A DNA stretch of 64,000 nt from Candidatus Woesearchaeota archaeon (GTDB lineage Archaea; Nanobdellota; Nanobdellia; Pacearchaeales; GW2011-AR1), in the NCBI GenBank assembly GCA_964534185.1, contig CAZHOH010000004.1, positions 17,438 through 81,437 of the forward strand. Direction: 5' to 3'. The notes below the pieces were generated by a model, which saw only the letters and a program-made list of their open reading frames with translations, was not told where the DNA came from and did no database searches. Of this stretch, positions 5,371-26,439 are shown one piece after another; position 1 is the stretch's first letter, and every line of letters starts with the position of its first letter. The translations under genes were made by a program, and so were the position numbers.

Positions 5371-5419
5371 TTTTGTTAATTATATAAATCCTTATTAATC
5401 TGTTATTAATTATCGGTTT

Positions 5420-6586: not shown

Positions 6587-6593
6587 AAGGAGG

Positions 6594-8550: not shown

Positions 8551-8591
8551 TTTTAACATAATTTTTTAAAGTATTTTGTATTTGGTTATTT

Positions 8592-9740: not shown

Positions 9741-10536
9741 GTTTATCTTCGAATTTTGATTCTATTTTGTTTGTGATTATATCGTCGTATTGTTGGAATT
9801 TTTTTGTATCTTTGTGAATCCATATTTCTTCCAGATGATTTTCTTGATGTAGCCAGAGTTTGTTTGTGTTGTCTAGGTGAAGAAGAGGTATGAATGTTTC
9901 TATTTTTTCTTCTCTTTTTTGTCCTGCGAATTCGCTGAATTTTATTTTTTCGTTTGTTTCAAAGAGTGATTTTATTCTTGTGTGGATGTGTTTTATTCTT
10001 TCTGCGATGTTGATTGTTTTTTTTGGAATGAATAATTTTGTTTTTTCGATTTGTTCTTTTTCTATGCGTTTCTTTATTAGTCTTCTGTTTTCTGTTGTCA
10101 TTGCTTTGCTTAGCGCTGACATTAGTTCGTTAAGGCTGACTTTTTTGTATCTTGGGAGAGGGGTTCTCGGCATGAGTTCTGGAATGTCTTCGTCTTCTAT
10201 TTCAGATATGTCTAGTTTTTGTTGAATTTCTTTTTTGTTGTTGAATAAGACGTCATCTAAGTCTTTTATGTAACGATTCATCAAGAGTTCTGATTTGATT
10301 CTTAATAGAAGGGAGCAGACTAACAGGACTTTGCTGCTTAGTGAGAAATTTGCTTCTTCGAGAATTCTTATTTTTTCAAGGTATTTTTGGGCGAGAAATG
10401 AGAGGTTGATGTCCCAAGGGTCAAGTTGTTCTGTGTTGATTAAATCGTAGATTATTTCCTGCCATGTTATTTCTTTTTCGAATAAAAATGATTGGAATTC
10501 TTCTTGTCCTATTTTTTGGGGCTTGTTTTCTTGCAT
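9724..10536 (-). CDS. scpA: segregation and condensation protein A (ScpA/kleisin)-like
   Basis: N-terminal region EITWQEIIYDLINTEQLDPWDINLSFLAQKYLEKIRILEE resembles the ScpA N-terminal helix motif. The rest is acidic coiled-coil. Confidence 0.5.
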   Translation of the reverse strand: MQENKPQKIGQEEFQSFLFEKEITWQEIIYDLINTEQLDPWDINLSFLAQKYLEKIRILEEANFSLSSKVLLVCSLLLRIKSELLMNRYIKDLDDVLFNNKKEIQQKLDISEIEDEDIPELMPRTPLPRYKKVSLNELMSALSKAMTTENRRLIKKRIEKEQIEKTKLFIPKKTINIAERIKHIHTRIKSLFETNEKIKFSEFAGQKREEKIETFIPLLHLDNTNKLWLHQENHLEEIWIHKDTKKFQQYDDIITNKIESKFEDKLNSTS

Positions 10537-10567
10537 AATAGGAATTAAGGAAAAGGAGTTTATAAGA

Positions 10568-10744
10568 TTAGTTGTCTCTGTTGATTAATGCACCGTTGCT
10601 TTTTATTGGGACTTGGAAAACTGTTTTGCATTTTTCACATTGTGCTGTTACTATGATTGTTATTGCTGTGAGGACTTTGCAGCCTTTTGTCATGAGTTTT
10701 GAGCCCATTTTTATTTCTATTTCGTTTCCGCACTGACATTTCAT
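10568..10744 (-). CDS. small zinc-ribbon protein (58 aa)
   Basis: Hand-translated ORF MKCQCGNEIEIKMGSKLMTKGCKVLTAITIIVTAQCEKCKTVFQVPIKSNGALINRDN with CxC...CxxC. It is below the 60-aa cutoff of the ORF track. Confidence 0.3.
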   Translation of the reverse strand: MKCQCGNEIEIKMGSKLMTKGCKVLTAITIIVTAQCEKCKTVFQVPIKSNGALINRDN

Positions 10745-11112
10745 AGAATTAGTTGAATAGGGAGGGTTTTAAAGATTTTGATTATTTAGATAGATTTTTT
10801 ATGAAATTGCCTGAAATGGCATTAGTCATTTTCAAAGGGTAACATAATCGAAAGGTTTAAATAGTAGTGGAATGTGGTATTATTAATCACCTCTTTTTCC
10901 CCATTAGAGGCAATCCAACACTCTTTTTGAACGTTGGGTTTCCTCTTCTCGGGGTTATGTTCTTAAGTTAATACTGAACTCTTGGATGATAAAAATGTAG
11001 AGTTTACTTAAATGGACTACAATCAAGAGAAAAAGAGGTATTGACTTATATTAATTATTGTATGGTGATAACAAATAGAAAGGTTTAAAAGTTAGTATTT
11101 TATTGATATTTT

Positions 11113-12816
11113 ATGATTCGCAATGGAAGAAATTTTGTTGTAAGAGAAAATCCTGAATCTAAGCAGGTTATTGTTTATAGTGGTAATACTCAGAGATTTC
11201 TTTCTTCTGAAGAGTTTGAAGAATTAAAATTCCAGATTAAGGATGTTAGGATTTTGGCAGGAAAAACATTGGGTTCAAGAAGTGGATATCTTTATTCTAA
11301 TGATAGAGAAGATATGGAAGAGTTTTATGGGCTTCCTGATGAAGTGATTATAGGGCAAGTTATTTTTGGAGAAAGAGATTTGGAAGAGAATTCTCAAGAA
11401 TTTGAAAAAGCTTCTACTCGTGCTAATGTTTTTGCAAAAAGGATTCCACCTATTTTTGACAGAGATTCTGAATCATTCAAAGAATACGAAGATGAAGAAG
11501 GGAAATCTTATAGGAGATTTCCAACAGTTGATGCTATAATTAATATTTTTGCAGGTAGTAAACCTTTTAGAAGTTTTGTAGATAAATCAGAGCTTGAAGA
11601 TATTTTAATGTTTGCAGATTTGGGTACAAAGGGATTTTCAGAACAAACTAAAAAACAAGTTTTAGACAAAGTTGCTCGACATTATCATTTCAAAGATACA
11701 GAATCCAGAGAATATGTTTTAGAAAAAGCTTCTGAAGCTTTTGATATGTTACAGAAGGAACTTCCACCAGTATCAAGAGATGGGCTTGTTCTTGTTTATG
11801 GAGGAGAAGATACAGCAGAAATTGTTAATCGACCTTTTTGGTATTTGCATTATAGTCCTCAATCAGTTGATAAAGTTCTTGAAAGTTATTGGCAAGAATT
11901 GGGCAGAAAAATTGAAACTCATGAACCTGTTGATAAAAAGGATATAGATACTGCTATTAGAAATTTAGAATTATTTCCTGAGAATGTTCCTGCGAATGTT
12001 TATGGATATTTTGAGTATGCTCAGGAGAGAGGAATTTCTCCTCAGATACTATTTGCAGCCAATAGTAAAGCTAATGAAATAGTTGAAACTCAAAATTATT
12101 CTGTTTTATCAAGGTCAACATTAAATCATTGCTCTGATGAATTGAGAGAAAGTTTATTGTCAGGATTAGAAGAATTTGTTGTTCATAGAATGGCCCCGGA
12201 GATATTGGGTTCTAATTCTCTTGGGAATGCGATTAAACAATTAGGACTTCCCAATATTGAGGGATTGGGAGAGACTTATGAAAATGTTGTTGGCAGGGCA
12301 ATTGATGATTATTTACAAAATCCTTTTGAATATATGGATTTTGGGAAGTTTATTGGAGTTGTAAATAGAACTCTTGGAGGGCATTTTATTGGAACAAAAG
12401 TTGCACAGAGTGTTGAAAGAATGAAATCTGAACCTGATTTTTATAAGAGGTTTGTTGAATATATTGATAGTTCTGTTCAACTTGAAAGTATGAGATTACC
12501 TTTATCTGAAGTAAGAACTTTGGTAGGGGTTTCTTCACAAAAACTTAAAGATGTTGCTAATCAGGCAATTGATGGAGCTCATAAGATGAAACTTCAAGGA
12601 CTTAATGATGCGGAATTTGCTAAATATGTCTCTAATGTTTCTTTATCTTCAGGAAAAGTTCAGACACAAGATTATGTTTTAAGAAGAGTTCATGGAATGG
12701 TTTCAGAGGATTTAGAAAAGGGTGTTTCTTTTCGGCAAGCCCTTAGAAATGTAGGTATTACAAAAGCTCCGGCAATAGTGAGAAATTCTTTTGAAGCTCA
12801 ATATAGTTTTAATTAA
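11113..12816 (+). CDS. hypothetical protein (567 aa)
   Basis: Long ORF with no recognisable catalytic motif, flanked by ORF-poor DNA. Confidence 0.45.
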   Translation: MIRNGRNFVVRENPESKQVIVYSGNTQRFLSSEEFEELKFQIKDVRILAGKTLGSRSGYLYSNDREDMEEFYGLPDEVIIGQVIFGERDLEENSQEFEKASTRANVFAKRIPPIFDRDSESFKEYEDEEGKSYRRFPTVDAIINIFAGSKPFRSFVDKSELEDILMFADLGTKGFSEQTKKQVLDKVARHYHFKDTESREYVLEKASEAFDMLQKELPPVSRDGLVLVYGGEDTAEIVNRPFWYLHYSPQSVDKVLESYWQELGRKIETHEPVDKKDIDTAIRNLELFPENVPANVYGYFEYAQERGISPQILFAANSKANEIVETQNYSVLSRSTLNHCSDELRESLLSGLEEFVVHRMAPEILGSNSLGNAIKQLGLPNIEGLGETYENVVGRAIDDYLQNPFEYMDFGKFIGVVNRTLGGHFIGTKVAQSVERMKSEPDFYKRFVEYIDSSVQLESMRLPLSEVRTLVGVSSQKLKDVANQAIDGAHKMKLQGLNDAEFAKYVSNVSLSSGKVQTQDYVLRRVHGMVSEDLEKGVSFRQALRNVGITKAPAIVRNSFEAQYSFN

Positions 12817-13726: not shown

Positions 13727-14329
13727 TTATTTTTTCTTTGTAGGTTTTGCAGATTTTTCTTCTGCTTTTAGTGCCTGCTTTGCCGCTTTTTTAGATTGCT
13801 TTTTTTCTTCGATTATCCATTCTATTTTTCCTAATCCTGGTTGTCTCATTGTGAGTCCAATTTTTGCTTCGCCCATTTTGTGGCTTATTGCAACTATTCT
13901 TGCTATACAGTTGTCTCCTTTTTTTAGAGACTTTTTGTTTGTCTTTCCTGTTAAGGTGTTTGTTTTTGAGAAACTTACGTAGTCATCCATTGTTTGGCTG
14001 ATATGAATCATTCCTTGCGCTGCACCTAAATCAATGAACGCTCCGAAGTTTGTTATTTCTGCGATTGTTCCGTATACTAATTCTTGTAATTCGGGTTTCC
14101 ATACAACTATTTTAAAGTTTGATTTGTAATATGCTGCTCCGTCGCCAGGAATTATTACTCCTTCTTCTATATCTCCTACTTCTGCTACTGCGATTACAGA
14201 GCCGAGTTCTTTGTCAAAATATTCTGCGTAGGTTTCCTTTAGCTGGGTTTTAACAGCTTCCTGAGTAGGCAATCCGAATAATTTCGGTTCTACCCTTATG
14301 TAATCCTCTACGTCAACTAAATAGAACAT
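13727..14329 (-). CDS. rpoE: DNA-directed RNA polymerase subunit E (Rpo7/RpoE')
   Basis: N-terminal MFYLVDVEDYIRVEPKLFG and an S1-like domain (GTIAEITNFGAFIDLGAAQGMIHISQ). The C-terminus has a K-rich tail. Confidence 0.85.
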   Translation of the reverse strand: MFYLVDVEDYIRVEPKLFGLPTQEAVKTQLKETYAEYFDKELGSVIAVAEVGDIEEGVIIPGDGAAYYKSNFKIVVWKPELQELVYGTIAEITNFGAFIDLGAAQGMIHISQTMDDYVSFSKTNTLTGKTNKKSLKKGDNCIARIVAISHKMGEAKIGLTMRQPGLGKIEWIIEEKKQSKKAAKQALKAEEKSAKPTKKK

Positions 14330-14419
14330 TTTATATAAAATGAGGTAAATTGAGGTTTATAAAGTTTGTGAGTAGTGAAAATTGCAAAGTTATTTTAATT
14401 ATTCTTATTTAAGGTTTTT

Positions 14420-14680
14420 ATGGTAAATATTCTTTATTTGACATTATTTAGGAAATGGTTTGATGAGGTTTTGCAGGGAAAGAAGAAGATTGAGTTTAGA
14501 GAGATAAAACCTTATTGGACTAAAAGATTGGATGGGAGGCAGTATGATTATGTTATTTTTAAAAATGGATATTCAAAAGAGGCTCCTATGATGAAAGTTG
14601 AATGTCTTGGAATTAGAAAAAAGGAGAGGTATGAGATTTTACTTGGCAGGATTTTGGAAACTGCTAATTTGAAATTATGA
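14420..14680 (+). CDS. ASCH/PUA-like domain protein
   Basis: 86 aa. The FRKWFDEVLQGKKKIEFREIKPYW pattern resembles the ASCH-domain N-terminus (GKKTxExR). Confidence 0.45.
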   Translation: MVNILYLTLFRKWFDEVLQGKKKIEFREIKPYWTKRLDGRQYDYVIFKNGYSKEAPMMKVECLGIRKKERYEILLGRILETANLKL

Positions 14681-15070
14681 AAATTTAATCTGTGTTTTTT
14701 GACGGATTGTTAGGAACTGAGTTTGGGGTGCTTTATTTTTTATTTTTTGTTTTAGGTTTCTGTCAAGGGTTGCTATTGTTACTTTATTTTTTATTGTAAA
14801 TGCGATCATGCCTGCGTCAACATCGGGAGTTTTTATTGAAGGGGTTTTTATTTCAGAGGGGTTTTTTTGAATTATTAGTATTGCGAGTTGTGCTGCCTGC
14901 TTTTCTGTTGTTTTTGTTTCTTTGCTTGATTGGAGCTTTTTTATTTCGTTTATTACTTCAAGGGGAATTATTATTTCTGGATTGTCAATTAGATTTTTTA
15001 TTTGTTCTAGTAAATCTATTTTTTGTTTTAATGCCGTTATGATAAAGTTTGTGTCTAGCAGGACTTTCAT
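14675..15070 (-). CDS. PIN-domain nuclease
   Basis: N-terminal acidic motif LLDTNFII, a later DVDAG...ATLD and 131 aa are typical of the PIN fold. The start overlaps the stop of the upstream small membrane ORF (ATGA). Confidence 0.7.
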   Translation of the reverse strand: MKVLLDTNFIITALKQKIDLLEQIKNLIDNPEIIIPLEVINEIKKLQSSKETKTTEKQAAQLAILIIQKNPSEIKTPSIKTPDVDAGMIAFTIKNKVTIATLDRNLKQKIKNKAPQTQFLTIRQKTQIKFS

Positions 15071-15303
15071 TTTTTTTTACCTGAATATTTTTTAAAATCA
15101 TCGGCTAAATGGTAAAAACTTTTTTCTAGATTGGCTAATCTTGTTTCGGTTCTTGTTATTTTTACTGCGATTCCGAAAACGATTGTTAAGATGAACATAA
15201 GGATTGTTTGTTCAAATGTTGGTGAATTGCCGAATAAGTACCATGTCCCTGTTGCTATTGAAAGGATTATTAGAATCCATAAAATTATATCATACCATTC
15301 CAT
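15067..15303 (-). CDS. small membrane-anchored protein co-transcribed with PIN nuclease
   Basis: 78 aa with one N-terminal TM helix and a charged C-terminal helix. There is a 4-nt overlap with the PIN gene. Confidence 0.4.
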   Translation of the reverse strand: MEWYDIILWILIILSIATGTWYLFGNSPTFEQTILMFILTIVFGIAVKITRTETRLANLEKSFYHLADDFKKYSGKKK

Positions 15304-15452
15304 TTATACTCCTTTGAAAAAGGAGATGATTAGTATTATGAAAGCAATTGCTATTAAAACCCAAATAACAATGTCTCTCCAGTCAAGAGATTTATTTTTC
15401 ATTTTGTTTTATAGGAAAAAATGTTTAAATAGTCTTTGTTATTTGTTTTTGT

Positions 15453-16010
15453 ATGAAAGAGGTTGAACATGTTGTTTCTTTGTTGATTGATGCGAAGAAA
15501 GCTGTGCAAGAAGGAGATGTTGTTAAATTACGCGACTTGAGTAATCAGACTGTTCATACTTCTTCTATTTATCAGGATGAAGATAATGTTCTTGTTGCGG
15601 TTTTTATTTATGCTCTTTCAAAAATTATTGAAAAAGGCGAAAAATATTATAAGCAGGATTATCAGAAGTATGTTGGCTTGTATGTTAAAGTAATTGAAAA
15701 ATCTGTTCGGCATTTGAATAATGGAGATGAAAAGGGCTTTAGGAAAGATATTAGTTTTGTTTTGAAATCTAAGGAGGCGAAAGGTGACTTGAAAAAGTAT
15801 TTACAGGATATTTTGAGAAAAGCGAGGATAAATAAAGCTTCACATGTTTATGAGCATGGGATTTCTATGAAAAAAACTGCTCGCCTTTTGGATATTTCTC
15901 TTTGGGAGCTTGCAGAGTATGCAGGACAGAAAGGGGTTTCTGATTCTAATTATAATTTTACTAAAAGTGTTAAAGATAGAATTAAAATTGCTGTGGAGCT
16001 GTTTAAATGA
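15453..16010 (+). CDS. hypothetical protein with C-terminal HTH-like segment
   Basis: 185 aa. GISMKKTARLLDISLWELAEY resembles a helix-turn-helix. A 4-nt ATGA overlap couples it to the downstream gene. Confidence 0.4.
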   Translation: MKEVEHVVSLLIDAKKAVQEGDVVKLRDLSNQTVHTSSIYQDEDNVLVAVFIYALSKIIEKGEKYYKQDYQKYVGLYVKVIEKSVRHLNNGDEKGFRKDISFVLKSKEAKGDLKKYLQDILRKARINKASHVYEHGISMKKTARLLDISLWELAEYAGQKGVSDSNYNFTKSVKDRIKIAVELFK

Positions 16011-16690
16011 AAATCTTGATTTTTGATTCAGGGACTTTGATTACTTTATCTATGAATTGTATGCTCGGAATTTTGCATAAGTTGAAAGAGGATTTTGATG
16101 GAAAGTTTGTTATTCCTGAAGAGGTTAAAGAAGAGATTGTTGATCGTCCTATGAATATTCCGAAATATAAACTTGGTGCAATGAGGCTTAAAGTTTTGAT
16201 TGATAGGGGTGTTTTGGAATTTCCAGATAGTTTGGGTGTTGATAAAGCAAGGATTAAGAAAAGAAGTAAAGAGATTTTGAATTCGGCTAATGCGTTTTTG
16301 TATGCTGATGGAAAATCAGTTCATTTAATTGATGATGGTGAGGCTGCAGTGATTGCTTTAAGTAATCTGCTTGATGAAAAGGGGATTGAGAATGTTGTTG
16401 CTATGGATGAGAGAACGACAAGGGTTTTGTGTGAGAAGCCAGAGAATTTGAAAAAACTTTTAGAGAATAAACTCCATACAAAAGTCATTATTAAGAAAAA
16501 AAATTATGAGACGAAATTTTTTGGTAATGTAAGATTTATTCGTTCGCCTGAACTGATTTATGTTGCGTTTAAGAAGGATTTTATCGAAGATAAATCTAAG
16601 GATATGCTTGATGCTATGTTGTATGGGGCAAAGTATAAAGGGGCTGCAATTTCAAGTTCTGAGATAAAAGCGATTGAAAGGATGGTTTAG
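16007..16690 (+). CDS. hypothetical protein, possible PIN-like N-terminal domain
   Basis: 227 aa. N-terminal KILIFDSGTLITL resembles PIN motif I (xLDTSALI). Confidence 0.35.
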   Translation: MKILIFDSGTLITLSMNCMLGILHKLKEDFDGKFVIPEEVKEEIVDRPMNIPKYKLGAMRLKVLIDRGVLEFPDSLGVDKARIKKRSKEILNSANAFLYADGKSVHLIDDGEAAVIALSNLLDEKGIENVVAMDERTTRVLCEKPENLKKLLENKLHTKVIIKKKNYETKFFGNVRFIRSPELIYVAFKKDFIEDKSKDMLDAMLYGAKYKGAAISSSEIKAIERMV

Positions 16691-16725
16691 AAATATTTAT
16701 AAAGTTTAATTTTTTTAAAGTAAAA

Positions 16726-17613
16726 ATGAGGTGGAAAATAACTTTAGTTTTTGGGTTGATGCTTTTACTTGTTCTTACAGTGAGTGCGCGGGAAGTTAAT
16801 TACGAAGTTAATACTTTGGAGGGAGTTGAGGTTTATCTTGCTACACTTAATGCTGATGCGGTTTATTCTTCTATTGATTCTAAGTTAATAAAACCTAATG
16901 AGACGATGGATGGAACTTTTAAGACTGTTCTTGAGAGTGATGATATGATTGATTTGTATACTTTAGTTAAGAAACATGATGTTAAAATATTTATGAAAAG
17001 GTTCGAAGATTTTCAAATTACAGGCAATACTGTTTATTTGAATTTAGAGGATGATGATAAAGCTCAGATAAGTAATGAACCTCTTGTTGAAGGGGCTGTT
17101 GAAACTGGGGAAGAGGTTGAGGTAGAGGGTAATGATTCGGTTGAAGGTAATGAGAGTGAGGAAGTTGTGGTGTTAGATTCTGAAAATGAAGAGGTTGAGA
17201 GTGAGGAGGAAGTAGAAAATTCTTCTGCTGAAAATTCTCAAGTTACTGGATTGGCTGCTTTGGGCGATGCTACTGGGAATGTTACCTCTTTTATTATGGA
17301 GGTTAAGTATTATTTGTTATCTGGAATTGTTTTGATTATTGCTGGTTTGCTTGTTTTTAGATACAGAAATAAGTTAGGTTCGGGAAGAGGAAAAAGTAAG
17401 GAGAATGAAAGTGATGACAGACCGCCGAGTGTTTTTGGAGCTCAGATAAGTGATGCTGAAAAGAATTTGATTAGGGCTAAAAAAGAGTTGGCTGAGGTTG
17501 AGGCAGAGTTTGGAAAGGTTAAAGATAAAGAGGGAAGATTAGAAGTTGCTCGACGGAAACTTGAAGAGGATAAAGCTGAACTTGATAGGTTGCAGAAAGG
17601 CGAAGAACGATAA
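16726..17613 (+). CDS. membrane/surface protein with acidic E/V-rich region and coiled coil
   Basis: N-terminal signal/TM segment, an E/V/S acidic stretch, a second TM helix (SGIVLIIAGLLVF), then a coiled-coil C-terminus. Confidence 0.45.
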   Translation: MRWKITLVFGLMLLLVLTVSAREVNYEVNTLEGVEVYLATLNADAVYSSIDSKLIKPNETMDGTFKTVLESDDMIDLYTLVKKHDVKIFMKRFEDFQITGNTVYLNLEDDDKAQISNEPLVEGAVETGEEVEVEGNDSVEGNESEEVVVLDSENEEVESEEEVENSSAENSQVTGLAALGDATGNVTSFIMEVKYYLLSGIVLIIAGLLVFRYRNKLGSGRGKSKENESDDRPPSVFGAQISDAEKNLIRAKKELAEVEAEFGKVKDKEGRLEVARRKLEEDKAELDRLQKGEER

Positions 17614-17664
17614 TTCTTTATTATTAGATAGTCTTATAAAGTAAGAAAAATATTTTTAGTTATA

Positions 17665-17809
17665 GGGTGCATAGTTTAATGGTAAAATAGGCGGCTCCAG
17701 ATGAAGGAAACCTAAGTTTCCTCTCACACACCTTAAAGGGTGTTTGTTAATGTAAGTTGTGAGAATATGGAGTGACCGCCGGCTGGGGGTTCGATTCCTC
17801 CTGCACCCA
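17665..17809 (+). tRNA. tRNA-Trp (anticodon CCA) containing a 74-nt intron after position 37
   Basis: Acceptor GGGTGCA/TGCACCC with discriminator A, D-arm GTTT-AATGGTA-AAAT, anticodon stem GGCGG (17690-94) with loop CTCCAG. The intron spans 17701-17774, then A38 and CCGCC (17776-80). Variable region GGCT and T-arm GGGGG-TTCGATT-CCTCC follow. Exon CTCCA pairs with intron-end TGGAG, consistent with a BHB motif. The intron has the hairpin GGAAAC-CTAA-GTTTCC. Confidence 0.8.
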
Positions 17810-17815
17810 TTTTTT

Positions 17816-19225
17816 ATGAAGGAAAAAATTAAAAAAAAGGAAAGAGGAAAAGTTGAGAAGTCTTTGAAGTATTCTATAAAAGAGGGAAGTGCGACTTCTT
17901 TTATGTCAGGAGCTGGAGAATCTTATATAGTTCCTTTTGCTCTTGCATTAAATGCTTCGAATGCGCAGATTGGTTACTTAACAAGTTTTGTTGGTTTGTT
18001 CCGTTCTTTTTCACAAATTTTTGGGAGTCGGGCAGTTTATAATGTCAGTCGTAAAAAAATTGTTTTAGTTTCTGTTTTTTCTCAGGCGCTTATTTGGGTT
18101 TTGATTTCTCTTCTTGGTTTTCTTGTTTGGAAAGGAGTTGTTAATGCTTATGCTGCGATTTTTTTAATTATTATTTATAGTATTTATGGAATTGTTGCAA
18201 GTTTTCCAGGACCTGCCTGGTTTTCATGGACGGGTGATTTAGTTCCGAATGAAAGACGGGGTGATTATTTTGCGAACAGGAATAAAATTGTAGGGATTGT
18301 TTCTATGACTGTTACACTTATTGCTGCGTTTTTTCTTGACTATAGTGAGGGTAGTGGTTTTTTACTTCTTGGGTTTATTGTATTGTTTTTGATTGCAGCT
18401 TCGGGAAGATTTGTTTCTGGTTATTATTTTACAAAACATTATGAACCAAATGCAGAGTTTAATCGAGAAGGTTATTTTACCCTTTTGCAATTTATTAAGA
18501 AAGCTCCTTTTAATAATTTCGGGACTTTTGTGATTTTTGTTGCTTTGATAAATATGGCGACGAATTTTGCTGCACCTTTTTTTGCAGTTTATATGTTGAA
18601 GGAGCTTGGATTTAATTATTTTTGGTTTATTGTTGTTGGAATTTCAGGAACTTTATTTACGATTATTGCTATGCCGATGTGGGGAAAAGTTGGTGATGCT
18701 TATGGGAACAGGACTTTATTGAAGATTGGAAGTTTTCTGATTGTTTTGCCTCCTTTTCTTTGGTTATTTGTTGACAAACCTTTGGAGATAATTTTTAGTG
18801 TGAGTGTTTTTGGGGGTTTTGGGTGGGCGGCTTTTAATCTTGCTGCTTCTAATTTTATTTATGATGCTGTTACTCCTCAAAGAAGGGCTATTTGTGTTGC
18901 TTATCATACTGTTTTTTCAGGAATTGGTGTTTTTGTTGGGGCTTTGCTTGGAGGTTTGTTTGTTGAATATGTTTCTTTAAGTTTTACAAATATTTTCTTT
19001 GCAGTGTTTTTTATTTCTAGTTTTTTGAGAGGAGTTTTTGGATTGATATTTATTCCTAGGATAAAAGAAGTTAGGAATTTTCCGAGTTTTGAAAAAAGAA
19101 TTGGGGCTTTGACTTATGCGACTCTTTTGATACCTGGGCCGTTTTATAGTTTGTTTCGTGGCGTGCGGGGGGCGTTTGGTTCTGTCGGCGAGCACGCTAA
19201 GAATGTTGTAAAGAGGAAAAGTTAG
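17816..19225 (+). CDS. MFS-type transporter
   Basis: About 12 hydrophobic helices in two halves, typical of the major facilitator superfamily. Start moved to ATG 17816 because the tracked start at 17759 lies inside the tRNA-Trp. Confidence 0.65.
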   Translation: MKEKIKKKERGKVEKSLKYSIKEGSATSFMSGAGESYIVPFALALNASNAQIGYLTSFVGLFRSFSQIFGSRAVYNVSRKKIVLVSVFSQALIWVLISLLGFLVWKGVVNAYAAIFLIIIYSIYGIVASFPGPAWFSWTGDLVPNERRGDYFANRNKIVGIVSMTVTLIAAFFLDYSEGSGFLLLGFIVLFLIAASGRFVSGYYFTKHYEPNAEFNREGYFTLLQFIKKAPFNNFGTFVIFVALINMATNFAAPFFAVYMLKELGFNYFWFIVVGISGTLFTIIAMPMWGKVGDAYGNRTLLKIGSFLIVLPPFLWLFVDKPLEIIFSVSVFGGFGWAAFNLAASNFIYDAVTPQRRAICVAYHTVFSGIGVFVGALLGGLFVEYVSLSFTNIFFAVFFISSFLRGVFGLIFIPRIKEVRNFPSFEKRIGALTYATLLIPGPFYSLFRGVRGAFGSVGEHAKNVVKRKS

Positions 19226-19446
19226 AGATCTCTATAATGTCTTCTTAATCTGTTTCTAAGTTTTATTCCATCTGATTCAATTTTTTCAAAAGTATCATAG
19301 CACGGAGAATAAAGAGGATGTTCTTGTAGTTCTTCTCTCTGTTTGCCTAATTTATTAGTTTGTTGTAAATCGGATTCTAGTGGATAATATTCTTGTTTTT
19401 GGATGTCGGAAGTTTTTGTTGAAGGATTTATGTGTTGAGATTTCAT
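19222..19446 (-). CDS. hypothetical protein
   Basis: 74-aa Q/E-rich ORF at the end of the tandem small-gene array. Confidence 0.3.
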   Translation of the reverse strand: MKSQHINPSTKTSDIQKQEYYPLESDLQQTNKLGKQREELQEHPLYSPCYDTFEKIESDGIKLRNRLRRHYRDL

Positions 19447-19465
19447 TTTATGATTTTATCTCCAG

Positions 19466-19722
19466 TCATGAAGATAGTTTGAATCTATCTGGGGGTGTGA
19501 ATTCAGAAAGAGTATCTGACGGCCACGGATCTTCAAAATTTTCTTGGAAATATTCTCTTTGTCTTTTTCGTAATTCTAAAAATTCCCCCCAAGATAATTC
19601 GCGATTTGGAATTCCATTTAATTCTAATGGAGTTTCTTGTTGTTGATAAGGTTGTTGATTAATAGAATTATATAATTCAAATAATTCTTGTGCTTGTTGT
19701 TGGGAGGCTTCATATTGTTTCA
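19466..19722 (-). CDS. hypothetical protein, member of tandem paralog array (MKQY.. N-terminus)
   Basis: Start set at MKQYEASQQQ (ATG complement at 19722). The upstream extension in the track is the out-of-frame image of the neighbour's conserved 3' end. It shares its N-terminus with the 19725-20150 gene. Confidence 0.4.
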
Positions 19723-19724
19723 TT

Positions 19725-20150
19725 TTATGAGGTATGTAGAACTCCGCATCCCATAACATCGCCTGGGGCAAGTACTACACTATCATCAAAAAGGACGTCA
19801 TCGACGCGTTTCATTAATTTATATAAATCTTCTTCAGTTGAGTGATGATTATCTATTGCATCCTGTAGGCTTTTGACAGCACAAGTAAGAACTGGACCTC
19901 TTACTGTGAATAAATTTTCTTCAATTCTTTTGTCTATTTCCCATTCTATAAGGATACTAGTTGTATGGGGACTTATTTTGCCTTCATAAAGAGAAGGTAT
20001 CCTTCCATATACTCTCATTCTATTTATTGTTCTGAGAGCTTGATTTAATTCTTCATTCTGATAAGAAGGTTGTCTTACTGACTGATTGTATAATTTAGGA
20101 TTGTCAAACATTTTTGTTTCTTGTTTTTGGGTTGCTCTGTATTGTTTCAT
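19725..20150 (-). CDS. hypothetical protein, tandem paralog (MKQY... start, ...GCGVLHTS end)
   Basis: 141 aa. The C-terminal ~60 aa (GPVL..VK.LQ..I.N......EDL.K.VD..LF......L..G.V.GCGVLHTS) is conserved with the next gene. Confidence 0.5.
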   Translation of the reverse strand: MKQYRATQKQETKMFDNPKLYNQSVRQPSYQNEELNQALRTINRMRVYGRIPSLYEGKISPHTTSILIEWEIDKRIEENLFTVRGPVLTCAVKSLQDAIDNHHSTEEDLYKLMKRVDDVLFDDSVVLAPGDVMGCGVLHTS

Positions 20151-20151
20151 T

Positions 20152-20478
20152 TTATGATGTATGTAGAACTCCGCATCCTTGAACTTCTCCTACGGTAAGT
20201 ATTATATTTTCTCCGAATAGAATCTCATCCACGCGTTTTGCAAGGTCTTCTATTCTTGAGGAATTTTGAGGATCATTTCTAATTGTATGTTGTAATTGTT
20301 TTACGGTACTTTCAAGAACAGGTCCTTTTTCTTTAAATAATGCCTCTCTAATTGTATGATTCATTTCCCAATATGCTACAATATCTATTGTTTCTGGATG
20401 TATTTCTCCATTATACTCTTGTAATCTTTGTTTGTATTCTGATTGGGGATTAAATATTCTTGAGATTATATTGTACAT
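20152..20478 (-). CDS. hypothetical protein, tandem paralog (...GCGVLHTS end)
   Basis: 108 aa. The C-terminal domain is paralogous to the 19725-20150 gene and ends in the identical GCGVLHTS. Confidence 0.5.
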   Translation of the reverse strand: MYNIISRIFNPQSEYKQRLQEYNGEIHPETIDIVAYWEMNHTIREALFKEKGPVLESTVKQLQHTIRNDPQNSSRIEDLAKRVDEILFGENIILTVGEVQGCGVLHTS

Positions 20479-20704
20479 TTTTATATTAATATTTGGAGGT
20501 TTATAATATTTATTATATTAGAAGGAAAAGTTTATAATTGCTGAAAGAGTTTTTTTCAAATGGTAGTTGGATGGATGATATTTGTGCTTGCGATTGTTGC
20601 GTTTATTATTGGGTGGCAGTCGCTTAGAGTTTATCGGAGAAGGAAAGAGGCGCAACTTGGACAGCAGTTTGACAAGAAAGATTTTATGTTTAATTAGTTT
20701 GAAA

Positions 20705-21289
20705 ATGCCTCGGGATAATTTTGTTTTTAGAAAGAATAATCAGCTTGGAAAGGCCGATAAAAGTATTCGGCAGGAGTGGGATGAGAGGATTGCTGGGTTG
20801 TGTGAGCTGATTAATTGTTTTGATAATTATTATACTACTTCGAGTTGTTCTGGGCGTGTGTTGTTGTTGTTTGATTCACGAGAGAAAAGAGATGATTTAT
20901 TTTTGAAAGTTTGGCATGATGAAATTGATTTTGAGGATTTGAAAAAGGTTTTAGGAGGGATTGATTCTTTGCAGATGATTTATTTTAAACAAGAGCCGTG
21001 TATTCTGCATGTTGCGTGCCGGAGTTTGGAGGATGCACAGAAAATGCATGATTTGGGGAAGGCGGCTGGTTGGAAGAGGTGCGGGATTATTGCAAGTGAT
21101 AAAAGGTATGTTGTTGAGCTGAATGCAAGTGAGAAATTAGAGTTCCCTGTTTTTGCTGATTTTAAGGTTTTGGTTAGTGATGAATTTTTGAAAGTTGTTG
21201 TTTCTGAGGCGAATAAGAAATTGGAGAGGAGTTGGGAGAGGATTTCTAAATTGAAAGAGTTGATTCAGCCGCTGAAAGGGCTGTCGTGA
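20705..21289 (+). CDS. taw3: tRNA wyosine-derivative biosynthesis protein Taw3 (TYW3 family methyltransferase)
   Basis: Signature YYTTSSCSGRV of the TYW3/DUF207 family. Start set at the ATG at 20705 (MPRDNF...); the tracked upstream part begins at a TTG. Confidence 0.7.
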   Translation: MPRDNFVFRKNNQLGKADKSIRQEWDERIAGLCELINCFDNYYTTSSCSGRVLLLFDSREKRDDLFLKVWHDEIDFEDLKKVLGGIDSLQMIYFKQEPCILHVACRSLEDAQKMHDLGKAAGWKRCGIIASDKRYVVELNASEKLEFPVFADFKVLVSDEFLKVVVSEANKKLERSWERISKLKELIQPLKGLS

Positions 21290-22800
21290 GAGGCCATTCC
21301 ATGAGCTTTTTTGTATACGTCGAAAATTGTAAAGCATGTTTCTGATGCAGTGTTTGCTGCTATTTTTCTTACTAGTTTTTCTCCATAACTGTCTTTTTTT
21401 ATGTTGTCTGCCGAGTTTATTTCTTTGTCTTTTTTTGAGTTTTTGCTTTTGAATAAGTCTGTGAAGCCACTGAAAAGTGCTGAAAAAGGATTTGTGTCTT
21501 CTTGATTTTGTTCTTCCTGGTTTTTTTCTTCTGGTTTTTCTTTTCCTTGCAGGTAGTGGTCTATGTCGCTTTGCAGTTCGTCTATGCTTTCTGTTGTTAT
21601 GCCTTCAATTAATTTGAATGCGTCGTTTACGTCTGAATTTTCCATTTCTTTTTTTAGTAGCTTTAGTTCATCTTCGTTTAGTGCATAAGCCTGAAAGTTT
21701 ACTGTTGCTTTTCCACCAAATAAATAGTGCTGTCCTGCTTTTTGAGGTATTCCTCTGAAATGAAAGTCTACTACAACAATTGAATAGTATTCTCTTTTTG
21801 GAATTGATAATCCGCCTGGGAGATTTGTTTTGCCTATTTCTTTTTCTACGTCTACTTTATTTTTTCCGAATAGTGCTAATTCAAGGACGATTGTGTTGAA
21901 GTTTGTTACAATTTCTGGAGATGATTCGTTTGAGAGTTTTTCATTTTCTTCTAATTTTGTTGCTGCTTTGAGATATGGTTTTACCCATCTTGAATAGAGT
22001 TTTAAACTATTGACTTGGCTTTTTAGGTAGTTTCTTTCTATGTTGAATCTTTTTTGTAGTTCTTGTTTGCTTTGTTTTGTCCATTCTTCGAATTCTATGA
22101 ATCTTGGTTTTAGGATTCTTTTTACCCTGTCGTTTAAGTCCATTTTTTCAATGTGTGAGACTGATTTTGCTGCCATGAATCCATCTCTTAGTGTTATGAA
22201 CTGGAGGTTTCCTGATGCTAGTGCGTTTATACTTCCTTGTCCTCTTTTTATGTCTACGTTGTCCATCCAGATTTGTTTTAGTGCGAGCATGCCTGCTTCT
22301 TTTCTGTCTTTGTCGCTTGATTCTAATGCTTTGTAGTGGTCGAGTCTTATTTCAAATTCTTTTAAGTCATATATGATGTTGATTATGCTTTTGATTACTG
22401 TGTTGATTGTTCCCATTGTTTCTGTTACGTTTTTCTGCATTAAGGATTTTCTCTGTCCCATTTCTGAAAAGTGTCCTGAGCCTGGGGAGGATGAGAAGTT
22501 GTCTATTAGTTTTTCGACTTTTCCGCCGAAGAAATTGTTCATCATGTCAAGTATCCAGAAGTAGATTGGTTCGAGTGTTTCTGATGAGGAGTCGTATACT
22601 ATTTTGTGTGCTCTGACTGGTTTTGCCCTTGCCTTTTCTGCAGCGTGGGTTGTTCCCTTTTCTTTTATTAGTTCTTTAAACTCTTTTAGCTTTTGAGGTG
22701 ACCCACCATAATCATGATAAAGTTTTGGATTTGTTGTTGCGATTATTTGAGCTATGCTTGCCATGTTCTTTTTTAATATATTTTGAATTATATAAAACAT
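21265..22800 (-). CDS. hypothetical protein (511 aa)
   Basis: Large soluble ORF with an acidic KEKPEEKNQEEQNQED segment. No motif recognised. Confidence 0.45.
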   Translation of the reverse strand: MFYIIQNILKKNMASIAQIIATTNPKLYHDYGGSPQKLKEFKELIKEKGTTHAAEKARAKPVRAHKIVYDSSSETLEPIYFWILDMMNNFFGGKVEKLIDNFSSSPGSGHFSEMGQRKSLMQKNVTETMGTINTVIKSIINIIYDLKEFEIRLDHYKALESSDKDRKEAGMLALKQIWMDNVDIKRGQGSINALASGNLQFITLRDGFMAAKSVSHIEKMDLNDRVKRILKPRFIEFEEWTKQSKQELQKRFNIERNYLKSQVNSLKLYSRWVKPYLKAATKLEENEKLSNESSPEIVTNFNTIVLELALFGKNKVDVEKEIGKTNLPGGLSIPKREYYSIVVVDFHFRGIPQKAGQHYLFGGKATVNFQAYALNEDELKLLKKEMENSDVNDAFKLIEGITTESIDELQSDIDHYLQGKEKPEEKNQEEQNQEDTNPFSALFSGFTDLFKSKNSKKDKEINSADNIKKDSYGEKLVRKIAANTASETCFTIFDVYKKAHGMASHDSPFSG

Positions 22801-22829
22801 TATAAATGTTGTAATTCCACTATAAAAAT

Positions 22830-23954
22830 ATGTCGCTTACTGTGATAGTAAAACCAACTCACGATTGCAATATTTCTTGCAGACATTGTTATATTGATGA
22901 AGCTGCTGAAAGTGGGACTATGACTGAATCTACTTTGTATAATACTCTTTTTCAATCTTCACAAAATGCTAAGGATGGTTCTGTTCAGTTTATTTGGCAT
23001 GGTGGAGAACCTCTTCTTATGGGGTTAGGTTTTTATCAAAAAGTTTCGGAGATGTCTGATGAACTTAGAGCTAAAGGATATAATATTGGAAATTCTATTC
23101 AAACTAATGGAATTTTGATTACTGATGAGTGGCTTGATTTTATTGAAGAAGAAAGAGATTTTAGATTGGGGCTTAGTTTAGATGGTCCTAAAGAGATTAG
23201 CGATGCTACAAGGGTTTATTGTGATGGAACTAGTGCATTTGATGATATATTAAGAGGTATTAGAAAAGTTAAATCAAGAAAACAGGGAGATAAAGTAAGG
23301 AAGGGAGCATTTGGTGGAGGGGCTATTGTTACTTTGAACAGACATCATCTTGGAAGAATAAAAGAGACATATGATTTTTTTAAGTCTGAGGAAATAAATA
23401 TGAAAGTTAATCCCCTTGTCAATTGCGGAAGAGCCAGTTTGAATGAAGATTTGAGGATAACCCCAAAAAATTATGGAGATTCTATGGTGGAACTATTTGA
23501 TTTGTGGGTTGAAGATTATGAAACTATTGATATAGAACCTTTTACAATGATTATGGGAAATTTGTTGACAGGTAAACCTGTTGGTTGTAATTATTCAACT
23601 TCCTGTAGAGAGAATTACGTTTCTATAGGACCAAATGGAGAAGTATATCCTTGTGGGAGATTTAATGGGAATTTGGATTTTTTAATGGGGAATGTGAATG
23701 ATGAGAATGGTTTGACAAATGCTTTGAATTCTCAGGTTAGTCAAAACTTGTTTGAGATGAGACAAGAATCTTCTCTTGGTTGTGGCAATTGTGATTATAT
23801 TGCTGTTTGTAATGGGGGATGTATGCATAATGCTTTTGTTGCTGGGGATATTAGAGGTAAAGATGAATACTGTTTTGCATACAAAAAGATTTTTAACCAT
23901 GTGGCCCAATTTTTAGATGATGAGTTAAGTAAAGCGGAGGTAACAGATGACTAG
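22830..23954 (+). CDS. radical SAM / SPASM-domain protein (COG0641 AslB-like peptide or protein maturase)
   Basis: N-terminal CNISCRHC (CxxxCxxC) radical-SAM cluster motif preceded by VKPTHD. The C-terminus has the SPASM-type Cys cluster CGNCDYIAVCNGGCMHNA plus further Cys. Confidence 0.8.
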   Translation: MSLTVIVKPTHDCNISCRHCYIDEAAESGTMTESTLYNTLFQSSQNAKDGSVQFIWHGGEPLLMGLGFYQKVSEMSDELRAKGYNIGNSIQTNGILITDEWLDFIEEERDFRLGLSLDGPKEISDATRVYCDGTSAFDDILRGIRKVKSRKQGDKVRKGAFGGGAIVTLNRHHLGRIKETYDFFKSEEINMKVNPLVNCGRASLNEDLRITPKNYGDSMVELFDLWVEDYETIDIEPFTMIMGNLLTGKPVGCNYSTSCRENYVSIGPNGEVYPCGRFNGNLDFLMGNVNDENGLTNALNSQVSQNLFEMRQESSLGCGNCDYIAVCNGGCMHNAFVAGDIRGKDEYCFAYKKIFNHVAQFLDDELSKAEVTDD

Positions 23955-24255
23955 CTTAGTTGATTTAATGGGGAGAACTGTAGATTTAGATCTAATTGAA
24001 AATCCTCATTTGAGAAGAGCTATTCGTGAAAGACTTGGAGATTTTTTATTTTTTTATAGAGATCATACTGATCACAGCGAATATGGAGATCATACAGAAA
24101 AATATTCTGAAAAATATGGTGATTATTATGATCATACTGATAGCAATAAGCGACATGATGATGACGGCAATCCTGTGGAGGAAGTAAGAGGTCATTGGAA
24201 AAAAGACAGGAATGTTGGAGTAAGGAAGTATAGCGATGAATGGTATGATTATTAA
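23947..24255 (+). CDS. His/Asp/Tyr-rich small protein translationally coupled to the radical SAM gene
   Basis: 102 aa. Its start overlaps the rSAM stop (gATGACTAG). The central region HTDHSEYGDHTEKYSEKYGDYYDHTDSNKRHDDDG has repeated DHTD/EKY elements; the DNA shows gatcatac(t/a)ga three times. Confidence 0.5.
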   Translation: MTSLVDLMGRTVDLDLIENPHLRRAIRERLGDFLFFYRDHTDHSEYGDHTEKYSEKYGDYYDHTDSNKRHDDDGNPVEEVRGHWKKDRNVGVRKYSDEWYDY

Positions 24256-24287
24256 TTCATAGCAAATTTTAAAAGAAAAGGATTCTT

Positions 24288-24740
24288 TTGGGAAGTATGG
24301 TTTTTGGGTTTAAGAAAAAGAGGACGATTGATTTTACAAAACTGCCTGCTGATGCACGGCGGGTCCCTGTTAAGCGGGACTTTAAGACGCAGGGAGATTT
24401 TGTTGATTTAAGTGATGAGGACATGGCTAAAGTTCAGAATGATTTGAATTCTTCTGGAGGTTCTGTTAGTTCTTCTAATGTTTCTTCTAGTTCGTCTGGC
24501 GGAGATTCTTCTGGGGGTTTTGGGTTTTTGAATTCTTTGGCTTCTTCTGGAAGTTCTTCACCGGATGTTTCAAGTTACGGGCATTCTGAAAATAGCCCGG
24601 ATGTTTTAGATATTAAGAGGAAGATGAGAGATATGACAAGCAAGATTGAAGATTCTTCGAATGAAGTTTATAGACTGACGCAGAAGATTGAACTGCTTGA
24701 AAAAAAGATTGAGAGGTTGGAAGGGGGGAGAGGATATTGA
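24288..24740 (+). CDS. Ser-rich / coiled-coil hypothetical protein
   Basis: 150 aa. A poly-Ser/Gly low-complexity middle is followed by a C-terminal heptad coiled coil (KIELLEKKIERLEG). Confidence 0.4.
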   Translation: MGSMVFGFKKKRTIDFTKLPADARRVPVKRDFKTQGDFVDLSDEDMAKVQNDLNSSGGSVSSSNVSSSSSGGDSSGGFGFLNSLASSGSSSPDVSSYGHSENSPDVLDIKRKMRDMTSKIEDSSNEVYRLTQKIELLEKKIERLEGGRGY

Positions 24741-24774
24741 TAAGATTTATTAATGATTTTTGGTTTTAGTTTTT

Positions 24775-26439
24775 ATGAAAAAAGAATTTTCTGATGAGAT
24801 TTATGCTTATGCACTTGAAAATGCGATGCATTATGGCAAGGCAAAGGAGGGGGCTGTTTTGCCGAAGCTGTTTCAGCATGGGCTTGAGAAGGGTGAGATT
24901 AAAGATGTAATGCCTGAAATTTCTAAGGTTGTTAAAGAGGTTAATGGCTTTGATAAGGATAAGGCTGAGAAAGAGTTTGAGAAATATAAAGAGTATCTTA
25001 AAGAGAGGGTTAAGGAGGAAAAGGGTTTGAAGGAGCTTAATAATGTTAAAGGGAAGCAGGTTTTTCGGATGGCGCCTTTTCCGTCTGGGAGTCTGCATTT
25101 GGGAAATATGAAAACTTATATGCTTAATGCACTTTATGCTGAGAAATACAAAGGAAAAGTTCTTTTGGTTATTGACGACACGATTGGGAGTGAGGCAAAG
25201 CCGATTACGCCTGAGGCTTATGATTTGATTCCTGAGGCGTTTGATTTGTTAAAGGTTAAGTATTCTAAACCTGTTAAGTATAAATCTGATAGGCTTGATA
25301 TTTATTATAGATATGCTGAGAAGTTGATTAAGAAAGATAAGGCGTATGTTTGCTCTTGTAATGCTGAGGAGTTGCGTGAGAATCGGGTTAAGATGAAAGA
25401 GTGTTCGTGTCGGCAGTTTCCTGTTGAAGAGCAGATTAAAAGGTGGAAGAAGATGTTTAAGGCGCGAGAGGGAGATTATACTTTGAGGATAAAGACGTCG
25501 ATGCAGCATCCGAATCCTGCTTTTCGTGATAGGGTTATTTTTCGAATTTCTGAGAGGAAGCATGCTCGGGTTGGGAAAAAGTATAAAGTGTGGCCTTTGT
25601 TAGAGTTTTCATGGGCTATTGATGATCATTTGTTCAAAGTTACGCATGTTATTCGCGGTAAAGAGTTGATGATTGAAGGTGAGATGCAGAAGTATATCTG
25701 GGATATTTTTGGGTGGGAGCATCCTGAATTGATTTATGTTGGATTGGTTAAGATTGATGGTATTGGGGGGAAGCTGAGCAAGAGTAAGTCGCAGAAAGAG
25801 GTTAAGAGTGGGGAGTATAGTGGGTGGGATGACCCGCGGACTTGGAGTGTGCAAAGTTTGTTTCGGCGGGGGATTTTAGCTGAAAGTCTTAGAGAGTTTG
25901 TTGAGAAAATTGGTTTGAATCAGAAGGAGATAACTGTGCCTATTGATGATTTGTATGCGATTAATCGACGGAATATTGATGATAAAGCTGACAGGTATTT
26001 TTTTGTTGCAAATCCGATTAAGGTGAAAATTGAGAATGCGCCTGAGATTTTTGAAGTTAAGGCAAAGGTTCATCCTGAGCGTAAAAAGATGAAGACGTTG
26101 AAAGCTGGTAGTGAGATTTTTGTGAGTTCTAAAGACTTGGCAGAACTTGGGGGGGAAAAGGTGAGGTTGATGCATTTGTATAATATCAAACTTGGGCGGC
26201 GGGCAAAATTTGTTGATATGGAGAAGGGTTTAAAGTTGAGGAAAATTCATTGGGTTTGTGGAGGGGTTAAGGTGCGGGTGATGGGGGTTGATGGGAAATA
26301 TATTCGTGGAATTGCTGAAGATAATATTAAGAATTTGAAAAAAGGTGATGTTGTGCAGTTTGAAAGATTTGGATTTTGTCGTTTTGATAATTATGATAAA
26401 AAAGAGGAGGAGTATGAATTTTGGTATACTCATGACTGA
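24775..26439 (+). CDS. gltX: glutamyl-tRNA synthetase (class I, Glu/Gln family, archaeal type)
   Basis: PSGSLHLGN is a HIGH-like motif and KLSKSKS a KMSKS motif. LLVIDDT resembles the GluRS (L/I)RxDDT(D/N) motif. N-terminal YAYALENAMHYGKA resembles archaeal GluRS starts. ATG at 24775; the tracked start at 24760 is TTG. Confidence 0.75.
   Translation: MKKEFSDEIYAYALENAMHYGKAKEGAVLPKLFQHGLEKGEIKDVMPEISKVVKEVNGFDKDKAEKEFEKYKEYLKERVKEEKGLKELNNVKGKQVFRMAPFPSGSLHLGNMKTYMLNALYAEKYKGKVLLVIDDTIGSEAKPITPEAYDLIPEAFDLLKVKYSKPVKYKSDRLDIYYRYAEKLIKKDKAYVCSCNAEELRENRVKMKECSCRQFPVEEQIKRWKKMFKAREGDYTLRIKTSMQHPNPAFRDRVIFRISERKHARVGKKYKVWPLLEFSWAIDDHLFKVTHVIRGKELMIEGEMQKYIWDIFGWEHPELIYVGLVKIDGIGGKLSKSKSQKEVKSGEYSGWDDPRTWSVQSLFRRGILAESLREFVEKIGLNQKEITVPIDDLYAINRRNIDDKADRYFFVANPIKVKIENAPEIFEVKAKVHPERKKMKTLKAGSEIFVSSKDLAELGGEKVRLMHLYNIKLGRRAKFVDMEKGLKLRKIHWVCGGVKVRVMGVDGKYIRGIAEDNIKNLKKGDVVQFERFGFCRFDNYDKKEEEYEFWYTHD

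Follow-up and report, generated by a model that had tools for sequence, protein, structure and literature searches.

Hybrid genes formed where the two copies of a tandem segmental duplication meet are a classical subject of bacterial genetics. Rows of small genes with repeated parts are found in other described systems, too. In the orphan toxin-CT (C-terminal)/immunity arrays of contact-dependent growth inhibition (CDI) and Rhs loci, short conserved junctions are repeated between successive small genes, and precursors of ribosomally synthesized and post-translationally modified peptides (RiPPs) with Nif11 or NHLP leaders are tandem small paralogs with a helical N-terminus and a short conserved C-terminus containing Cys. 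Type II antitoxins with a disordered neutralizing tail combine a folded N-terminus with a conserved disordered C-terminus and are encoded upstream of a larger partner. Features of each of these systems can be recognized in a run of four small genes, designated here G1, G2, G3, and G4 in their reading order, or in its homologs. The run lies on the minus strand of a 64,000-nucleotide (nt) stretch of DNA from a Candidatus Woesearchaeota archaeon (GenBank assembly GCA_964534185.1, contig CAZHOH010000004.1, positions 17,438 to 81,437 of the forward strand), and this whole stretch is called the window below.

An earlier note on this DNA regarded the run as a family of recombining cassettes. We have analyzed its repeat structure, protein relatives, and surroundings, and the explanation that accounts best for the whole, with a probability of about 0.72, is a single old tandem duplication that made G2 a chimeric gene, both copies of the duplicated domain being kept and the conserved tail of this domain docking into a partner; the docking part is graded on its own below.

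Shared Modules and Repeat Structure of the Array

The earlier note correctly described consecutive open reading frames (ORFs) arranged head to tail on the minus strand, and its count of three or four genes that share modules holds for G1, G2, and G3. It does not hold for G4, which shares with G2 and G3 only the start context of 13–14 nt (ATCATAAAATGAAA) and whose protein similarity to G3 is marginal and possibly compositional (its score is equaled or exceeded in 15 of 500 shuffles). The domain common to G1 and G2 with the ending GCGVLHTS is real, but it is not the almost identical domain of ~60 amino acids (aa) that had been described: it covers ~90–100 aa with 42–46% identity (46% over 87 aa with E = 2e-27, or alternatively 42% over 102 aa), and only the last eight residues form an identical stretch at the C-terminus. 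The second shared module, the N-terminal start MKQY(E/R)A(S/T)Q(Q/K)Q, belongs as described to two genes, G2 and G3 (MKQYRATQKQ… and MKQYEASQQQ…, respectively), which are 40% identical over ~55 aa (E = 2e-6), a score matched by none of 500 shuffles. G2 is composed accordingly of 33–54 N-terminal residues homologous to the N-terminus of G3 and a remainder homologous to G1. The 64 kb of the window hold no additional copy of the G1 domain or of the MKQY module, and no relic of the domain was found inside or after G3.

A dot-plot of positions 19100–20600, the check that the earlier note had proposed for its repeated stop-to-start junction, bears out the repeat and has the offset of 427 nt as its sole outlying diagonal. 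The best 40-nt window at this offset, which corresponds to the two junctions in Table 1, is identical at 38 of 40 positions, compared with 26 of 40 for the next best offset and 29 of 40 for the best of 100 shuffles. Over 397 nt (19655–20051) the diagonal has 57.9% identity versus 29% ± 2.4% elsewhere (z ~12), and a repeat search gave a 135-nt repeat of 76% identity with a spacing of 427. The same number is obtained from the genes themselves, being the sum of G1 with its stop codon (327), a 1-nt spacer, and 33 codons (99), and the 141 residues of G2 are the sum of 33 and 108.

Origin by One Tandem Duplication

The starting point would have been two genes, the domain gene G1 and, after it, the MKQY gene G3. 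One 427-bp segment, whose ends did not coincide with the gene borders and which reached from the start of G1, or just inside it, to ~33–54 codons into G3, would have been duplicated in tandem, turning the pair into G1, a fusion of the N-terminus of G3 to the G1 domain (the present G2), and G3. This one event accounts for the two shared modules as well as for the repetition of the junction. G2 has the features of a gene at a duplication join, since it joins the beginning of its downstream neighbor G3 (residues 1 to ~54, E = 2e-6) to the body of its upstream neighbor G1 (residues ~34–141, E = 2e-27), and its origin as a duplication chimera is, at the level of sequence comparison, demonstrated. 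Because relatives on other contigs have the layout of G1 without the MKQY extension, G1 can be taken as the ancestral form and G2 as the derived chimera.

Outside the junction, the same codon is used at 18 of the 35 residues identical between G1 and G2, compared with 15.0 expected from the codon usage of the window (P = 0.18), and the method of Nei and Gojobori (NG86) gave a nonsynonymous divergence (dN) of 0.56 and a synonymous divergence (dS) of 0.92 for the core of the two genes. With codon identity outside the junction not above the level expected from codon usage, and with dS at ~0.9, the duplication is old. All 11 family-invariant residues are kept by both G1 and G2. Both domain copies are probably functional, because G2 is still open in an A/T-rich genome, has kept these 11 residues, and has coding-like codon usage; the annotated frame is better than all five alternative frames for each of the four genes. 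When contigs of two sequencing runs are compared with the window over 10–20 kb, the identity is 100%, although the two runs may sample the same population.

The flanks of the 38/40 junction are ~55–60% identical. The near-identity of the junction stems mainly from its encoding the most constrained part of the family, i.e., the tail G-C-G-x-L-H-T, and then a stop codon, a start codon, and a conserved N-terminus. There is in addition an excess of identical synonymous codons (9 of 11 vs 4.7 expected, P ~0.007 for a region chosen post hoc), which is the sole hint of recombination in the array, and the dS between G1 and G2 is 0.23 in the tail vs 0.92 in the core. This extra synonymous identity may reflect a short gene-conversion tract or selection on the stop/start sequence. 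Coupling of termination and reinitiation in archaeal operons is a candidate mechanism for a conserved start context, and selection on this context is favored here because the same 14-mer is found again at the G4 start, and its first half does not encode protein there. In the whole window the 13-mer ATCATAAAATGAAA has exactly three copies, one each at the starts of G2, G3, and G4, and its ATCATAA part is non-coding at G4 because the stop codon of G3 is located 19 nt upstream. For RNA structure, the z values are -0.6 and -0.85 (not significant) at the junctions that were duplicated and -2.2 at that between G3 and G4; a weak 4-bp UCAU/AUGA hairpin is all that the three have in common. Each gene of the run is in the +1 frame relative to the preceding gene; programmed +1 frameshifting across the junctions was considered and dropped, there being no slippery site and no supporting evidence.

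A Rare Protein Family with a Conserved Tail

Searching for the conserved domain in large protein collections, as the earlier note had suggested, found six further members. HMMER with a profile of G1 and G2 against 1.84 billion cluster representatives gave five more proteins of 98–124 aa (E values of 1e-10 to 4e-5), and a profile search of 5.8 billion proteins gave one further member. When G1 or G2 was used as a single query in a word-indexed search of the 5.8 billion proteins, only these proteins themselves were returned. The family known here comprises eight sequences, namely G1, G2, and six homologs (P0003–P0007 and P0010), which have the same length and layout as G1. Its members are characterized by ~100 aa, a conserved Trp, the motif (K/R)GPxL, and G-x-G-x-L-x-T within 0–4 residues of the C-terminus, and both G1 and G2 fit this description. 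The homologs end in VGCGCLHT(S), except for the variant GVGVLRTS of P0006. Their genes are located on metagenome contigs with a guanine-plus-cytosine (GC) content of 45–60%, and the only one with an organism label is in a metagenome-assembled genome (MAG) of Nitrospirales.

No significant model match in Pfam, NCBIfam, PADLOC, or PHROGs was found for any of G1–G4 or for the homologs of G1 and G2. Likewise, blastn and tblastn against plasmid and phage collections, as well as literature searches on the tail motif and on the accessions of the sequencing runs, found nothing. For G1, AlphaFold2 predicted a five-helix bundle at residues 11–88 (mean predicted local distance difference test score, pLDDT, 75) and a disordered tail at residues 92–108, which bears the motif; for G2, residues 1–23 were predicted as disordered, with helices thereafter. 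Neither Foldseek against PDB and BFVD nor a profile search of PDB sequences gave a meaningful match for the small family. The domain is accordingly an unannotated and extremely rare family, with eight sequences in collections of billions and a strikingly conserved C-terminal tail.

Several other candidates were examined and set aside. Two weak HMMER matches to giant proteins concern LamG-like and HEAT-like repeat proteins and are probably not homologs. In one of them, P0009 (4690 aa), HEAT-like repeats at ~3700–4540 (AVKMIQGLIEN…VVLALGEALGAG) weakly match helices 4–5 of the domain and the beginning of the tail; a helical hairpin of the HEAT type may therefore form the C-terminal half of the domain. 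The match itself is weak and probably does not reflect homology. A degenerate DNA pattern for the family matched no viral contigs, and the one metagenome sequence that it matched (L009) does not belong to the family; the pattern occurs there by chance, in an ABC-transporter region of high GC content.

Gene Neighborhood of the Homologs and Proposed Function

In every homolog contig long enough to show the downstream region, a large ORF follows the small gene within ~80–140 nt (loci L003/L004, L005/L008, L006, and L007). These ORFs encode 496–633 aa, are 47–60% identical between distinct loci, and are rich in conserved Cys and His, including FGAxCGHC (CGHC) and HVILIH (H-x-I-L-I-H). By eye, the series FGAxCGHC … HVILIH … FSDxTD is reminiscent of a papain/C39-like Cys-His site. 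The partner protein had no match in the plasmid or phage collections. The longest homolog contig, L003 (JGI 3300037692, Ga0395784_0007466; 1-11161), has a LexA/S24-like repressor gene divergent from the small gene, followed by the genes for the 633-aa partner and for an 888-aa protein with a weak HD-domain match, the latter gene overlapping the partner's stop codon. The same contig carries a second LexA/S24-like gene alongside a TIR (ThsB-like) protein and a caspase-like (C14) peptidase, and an excisionase-like gene is present near the Nitrospirales homolog. We infer that the neighborhoods of the homologs resemble a defense island or mobile context.

The domain, modeled as a bundle of five helices over ~80 aa, could be a small adaptor or regulator whose conserved, flexible C-terminal tail docks into a partner protein, and we offer this, with low confidence, as a tentative proposal. 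In the relatives on other contigs (bacterial where labeled), the partner of the tail would be the large Cys/His-rich protein encoded downstream. In the archaeon, G3 is suggested as the local interaction partner because its N-terminus is fused to a copy of the domain in G2, and fused proteins are commonly taken to interact. The 511-aa neighbor of the array (Table 1) was considered as a counterpart of the large partner and rejected, since it is unrelated in sequence. In a wider form of the proposal, of similarly low probability, the tail protein and the large partner, possibly together with the HD-domain protein, would constitute an undescribed and very rare system of two or three genes, maybe of defense or a mobile element, in which the tail acts as a substrate or inhibitor; the archaeal locus would be an offshoot without the large partner, where G3 was recruited instead and the G2 fusion records this recruitment. 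Should the pair prove to function as a system, the fusion gene of the archaeon would offer a clue, open to testing, to what the domain binds.

Several points weigh against the explanation as a whole. Regarding the duplication, the exact breakpoints can be placed only between codons ~34 and ~54 of G2, a segment that resembles both residues 1–21 of G1 (4/21, by eye) and residues 31–51 of G3 (7/22, in the alignment). A pattern scan of genome contigs found only the Nitrospirales MAG and no related archaeal genome, so that the arrangement before the duplication was not observed. The dN/dS ratio is high (~0.6), for which relaxed constraint or saturation may be responsible. Regarding the function, the docking idea draws only on gene order and the predicted disorder of the tail. 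The tail of P0006 has neither of the two Cys residues nor the His, so chemistry based on Cys and His is not universal in the family. The partner has no recognizable domain (Pfam, NCBIfam, PADLOC, PHROGs, and a profile search of PDB), and it is absent from the window, where tblastn of four partner sequences gave nothing below E = 0.89.

Alternative Explanations

The alternative nearest to the proposed function makes the small protein an antitoxin-like neutralizer whose disordered tail blocks the large downstream effector, the archaeal copies being duplicated orphan neutralizers directed, for example, against incoming elements. The position of the small gene before a large conserved gene in every sufficiently long homolog contig and the conservation of a disordered tail fit this explanation, as do the LexA/S24, TIR, caspase-like, and overlapping HD-domain genes of L003 and the excisionase-like gene near the Nitrospirales copy. 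However, no known toxin, antitoxin, or defense model matches the small protein or its partner, the small protein is acidic and has no DNA-binding fold, and the partner is missing from the window. It overlaps the functional part of the docking proposal, differing from it only in the sign of the interaction, and we regard it as unlikely.

The cassette explanation of the earlier note is somewhat less probable. According to it, the array recombines actively, and the junction is a recombination site that shuffles modules and diversifies a toxin/immunity-like or a surface or secreted family. The contrast between the junction (38/40) and its flanks, the excess of identical synonymous codons there, the occurrence of the 14-mer for a third time where G4 begins, and the presence of two toxin-antitoxin-like pairs a few kb away speak for it. 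The local paralogs that share modules did prove real; however, one old 427-bp event suffices to cover every shared module, the domain and the MKQY module each being present twice and nowhere else in the window, and the two samples, assembled independently but perhaps drawn from one population, do not differ. What is conserved is a short stretch, and it falls on the most conserved protein motif of the family. A variable surface or secreted family is not supported, in view of the hydrophilic character of G1–G4, whose peak 19-residue Kyte-Doolittle mean is 1.24 and whose grand average of hydropathy (GRAVY) is -0.5 to -1.4; a simple hydropathy test, with no dedicated predictor, found no signal peptide or membrane segment in any of them. 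Nor is a polymorphic toxin/immunity set supported, given the absence of toxin, immunity, or defense matches in the four model collections named above and of a large toxin or delivery gene adjacent to the run. The locus is otherwise ordinary, and neither a variable effector array nor a toxin/immunity array should be seen in it; its pattern is one of ordinary gene-family evolution and not of a shuffling cassette system.

About as improbable, or slightly more so, is an explanation of G1 and G2 as RiPP-like precursors, with a helical leader and a Cys/Thr tail as core, which would be modified by the radical SAM/SPASM enzyme encoded 2.3 kb away. This enzyme scores best versus peptide maturases (DynA, 281 bits; anaerobic sulfatase maturase, 228; TIGR04083, 197), and tandem paralogs with a conserved disordered tail containing Cys…Thr would suit it, the Cys-x4-Thr spacing recalling the thioether cross-links of SCIFF-type peptides. 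All of the maturase scores are, however, below the curated cut-offs, and P0006 lacks Cys. The maturase gene is on the opposite strand with TYW3 and the 511-aa gene in between, and it has a candidate substrate of its own in the overlapping downstream 102-aa protein rich in His, Asp, and Tyr. No radical SAM gene was called in the retrieved homolog contigs, where a different partner is conserved.

Least probable is the decay of the ORFs, G2 then being a by-product of the duplication on its way to a pseudogene, and G3 and G4 spurious ORFs; the dN/dS of ~0.6 and the lack of both homologs (≥90% identity) and a family match for G3 and G4 agree with this, but it is unlikely, as four frames remain open at 34% GC, where stops arise easily, despite saturated synonymous divergence, and as G2 keeps the 11 invariant residues and codon usage favors the annotated frames.

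Gene Organization and Surroundings

Coordinates of the array, its repeats, and surrounding features are listed in Table 1. The spacing is 1 nt both between G1 and G2 and between G2 and G3 (TAA-A-ATG), and 19 nt between G3 and G4. Because of these stop/start spacings and the ATCATAAAATGAAA context at every internal start, the tightly packed run of small cytoplasmic-protein genes is probably one operon. The A/T-rich stretch upstream of G1 is, as read from its sequence, a candidate archaeal promoter for a predicted leaderless transcript of G1–G4. For G3 and G4, no homologs were found at ≥90% identity, the 90% cluster of G3 consisting only of itself and a variant with a longer start codon choice. 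Rfam gave nothing within the locus. Extension of the contig past the edges of the window added only ~2.5 kb.

Table 1. Position of the genes and repeats of the array and of surrounding features in the window.
Feature	Position	Strand	Description
G1	20152-20478	minus	ORF of 108 aa; helical domain and C-terminal tail …VQGCGVLHTS; layout corresponds to the ancestral family architecture
G2	19725-20150	minus	ORF of 141 aa; chimera, ends in …VMGCGVLHTS
G3	19466-19723	minus	85 aa counted from the MKQY ATG; acidic (isoelectric point 4.5), Q/E-rich; donor of the MKQY… N-terminal module
G4	19222-19446	minus	74 aa, hydrophilic; final gene of the run
427-nt unit, nominal copy 1	20052-20478	minus	G1, 1-nt spacer, and G2 codons 1–33
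427-nt unit, nominal copy 2	19625-20051	minus	G2 codons 34–141, 1-nt spacer, and G3 codons 1–33
Junction 1	20139-20178	minus	GGATGCGGAGTTCTACATACATCA-TAA-A-ATGAAACAATAC; final 8 codons of G1, stop, 1 nt, first 4 codons of G2
Junction 2	19712-19751	minus	Same 40 nt as junction 1 save 2 differences, both synonymous; end of G2, stop, 1 nt, start of G3
Third copy of start context	19441-19454	minus	ATCATAAAATGAAA at the start of G4; ATCATAA part non-coding
A/T-rich stretch upstream of G1	20479-20525	minus	TATA-like TTATAAA ~21–28 nt before the ATG (sequence reading); candidate promoter
567-aa ORF	11113-12816	plus	No meaningful match in Pfam or NCBIfam
PIN_9 protein	14675-15070		Member of a toxin-antitoxin-like pair with a 78-aa gene just upstream (called on L001)
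UPF0175-like protein	15453-16010		First member of a toxin-antitoxin-like pair
DUF3368 (PIN-like) protein	16007-16690		Faint match; second member of the same pair
tRNA	17665-17809	plus	145 nt; Rfam, 45.8 bits; missed by ARAGORN
MFS ORF	17759-19225		Long ORF with GTG start
45-aa ORF	20560-20697	plus	One hydrophobic segment (MVVGWMIFVLAIVAFIIGWQ…); annotated gene in the assembly
511-aa ORF	21265-22800	minus	No meaningful match in Pfam, NCBIfam, PADLOC, or PHROGs (best, at chance level, E = 0.044)
Radical SAM/SPASM gene	22830-23954	plus	Scores best versus peptide maturases
Radical SAM/SPASM gene and 102-aa ORF	22830-24255	plus	Stop of the former overlaps the start of the latter (His/Asp/Tyr-rich, …FYRDHTDHSEYGDHTEKYSEKYGDYYDHTD…)

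The host has a GC content of 34%, and the GC content of the locus is unremarkable. Archaeal markers in the window are TYW3, an Rpb7-type RNA polymerase subunit, and the ribosomal proteins S24e and S27e. The direct neighbors of the run are a transporter gene of the major facilitator superfamily (MFS) and TYW3, and the 45-aa ORF is located between G1 and TYW3. The 145-nt tRNA is probably an archaeal tRNA containing an intron. Since the tRNA extends into the 5′ end of this long MFS ORF, the true start of the MFS gene must be further in; the gene call on locus L001 has 469 aa. On the other side, the 511-aa gene and the radical SAM gene are divergently oriented and only 29 nt apart, and the radical SAM gene together with the overlapping 102-aa ORF may be an archaeal maturase-substrate pair of the RiPP type. 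From 14000 to 26000, the GC skew of the plus strand is strongly positive throughout, being 0.3–0.55 over plus-strand genes and +0.01 to +0.13 over minus-strand genes, and this strand asymmetry exceeds a coding-strand effect.

Comparison with Known Systems

The orphan arrays of CDI and Rhs loci share with G1–G4 the short conserved junctions between successive small genes. They differ in that neither a CdiA/Rhs gene nor toxin/immunity domains are present here, one duplication accounts for the repeat, and no variation is seen between two samples that may represent the same population. In addition, the conserved block in G1 and G2 is the C-terminus of a conserved domain, and does not stand ahead of a variable toxin tip.

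The likeness to RiPP precursors with Nif11 or NHLP leaders, which covers the tandem paralogs, the helical N-terminus, and the short Cys-containing C-terminus, is extended by the maturase-like gene within 2.5 kb. G1 and G2 are, however, neither adjacent to this gene nor co-oriented with it, they have no Nif11 or NHLP match, and the maturase has a better candidate substrate. Type II antitoxins with a disordered neutralizing tail resemble the family in the order of folded and disordered parts, in the position upstream of a larger partner, and in the mobile or defense-like context seen in the homolog contigs. They are distinguished from it by the absence of any antitoxin, toxin, or PADLOC match and of a DNA-binding fold in the family, and by a partner of ~500–630 aa that is unclassified and missing from the archaeal window.

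The closest agreement is with the hybrid genes formed at the join points of tandem segmental duplications. As in those cases, the direct repeat has a period equal to the length of the unit, the middle gene consists of the 5′ part of the downstream gene and the body of the upstream gene, and the flanking genes are intact. Most of the duplications observed in the laboratory are unstable and recent, whereas the present one is old and fixed, with both copies retained. The array is therefore a clean natural case in which one out-of-register tandem duplication has made a chimeric gene that was kept for a long time.

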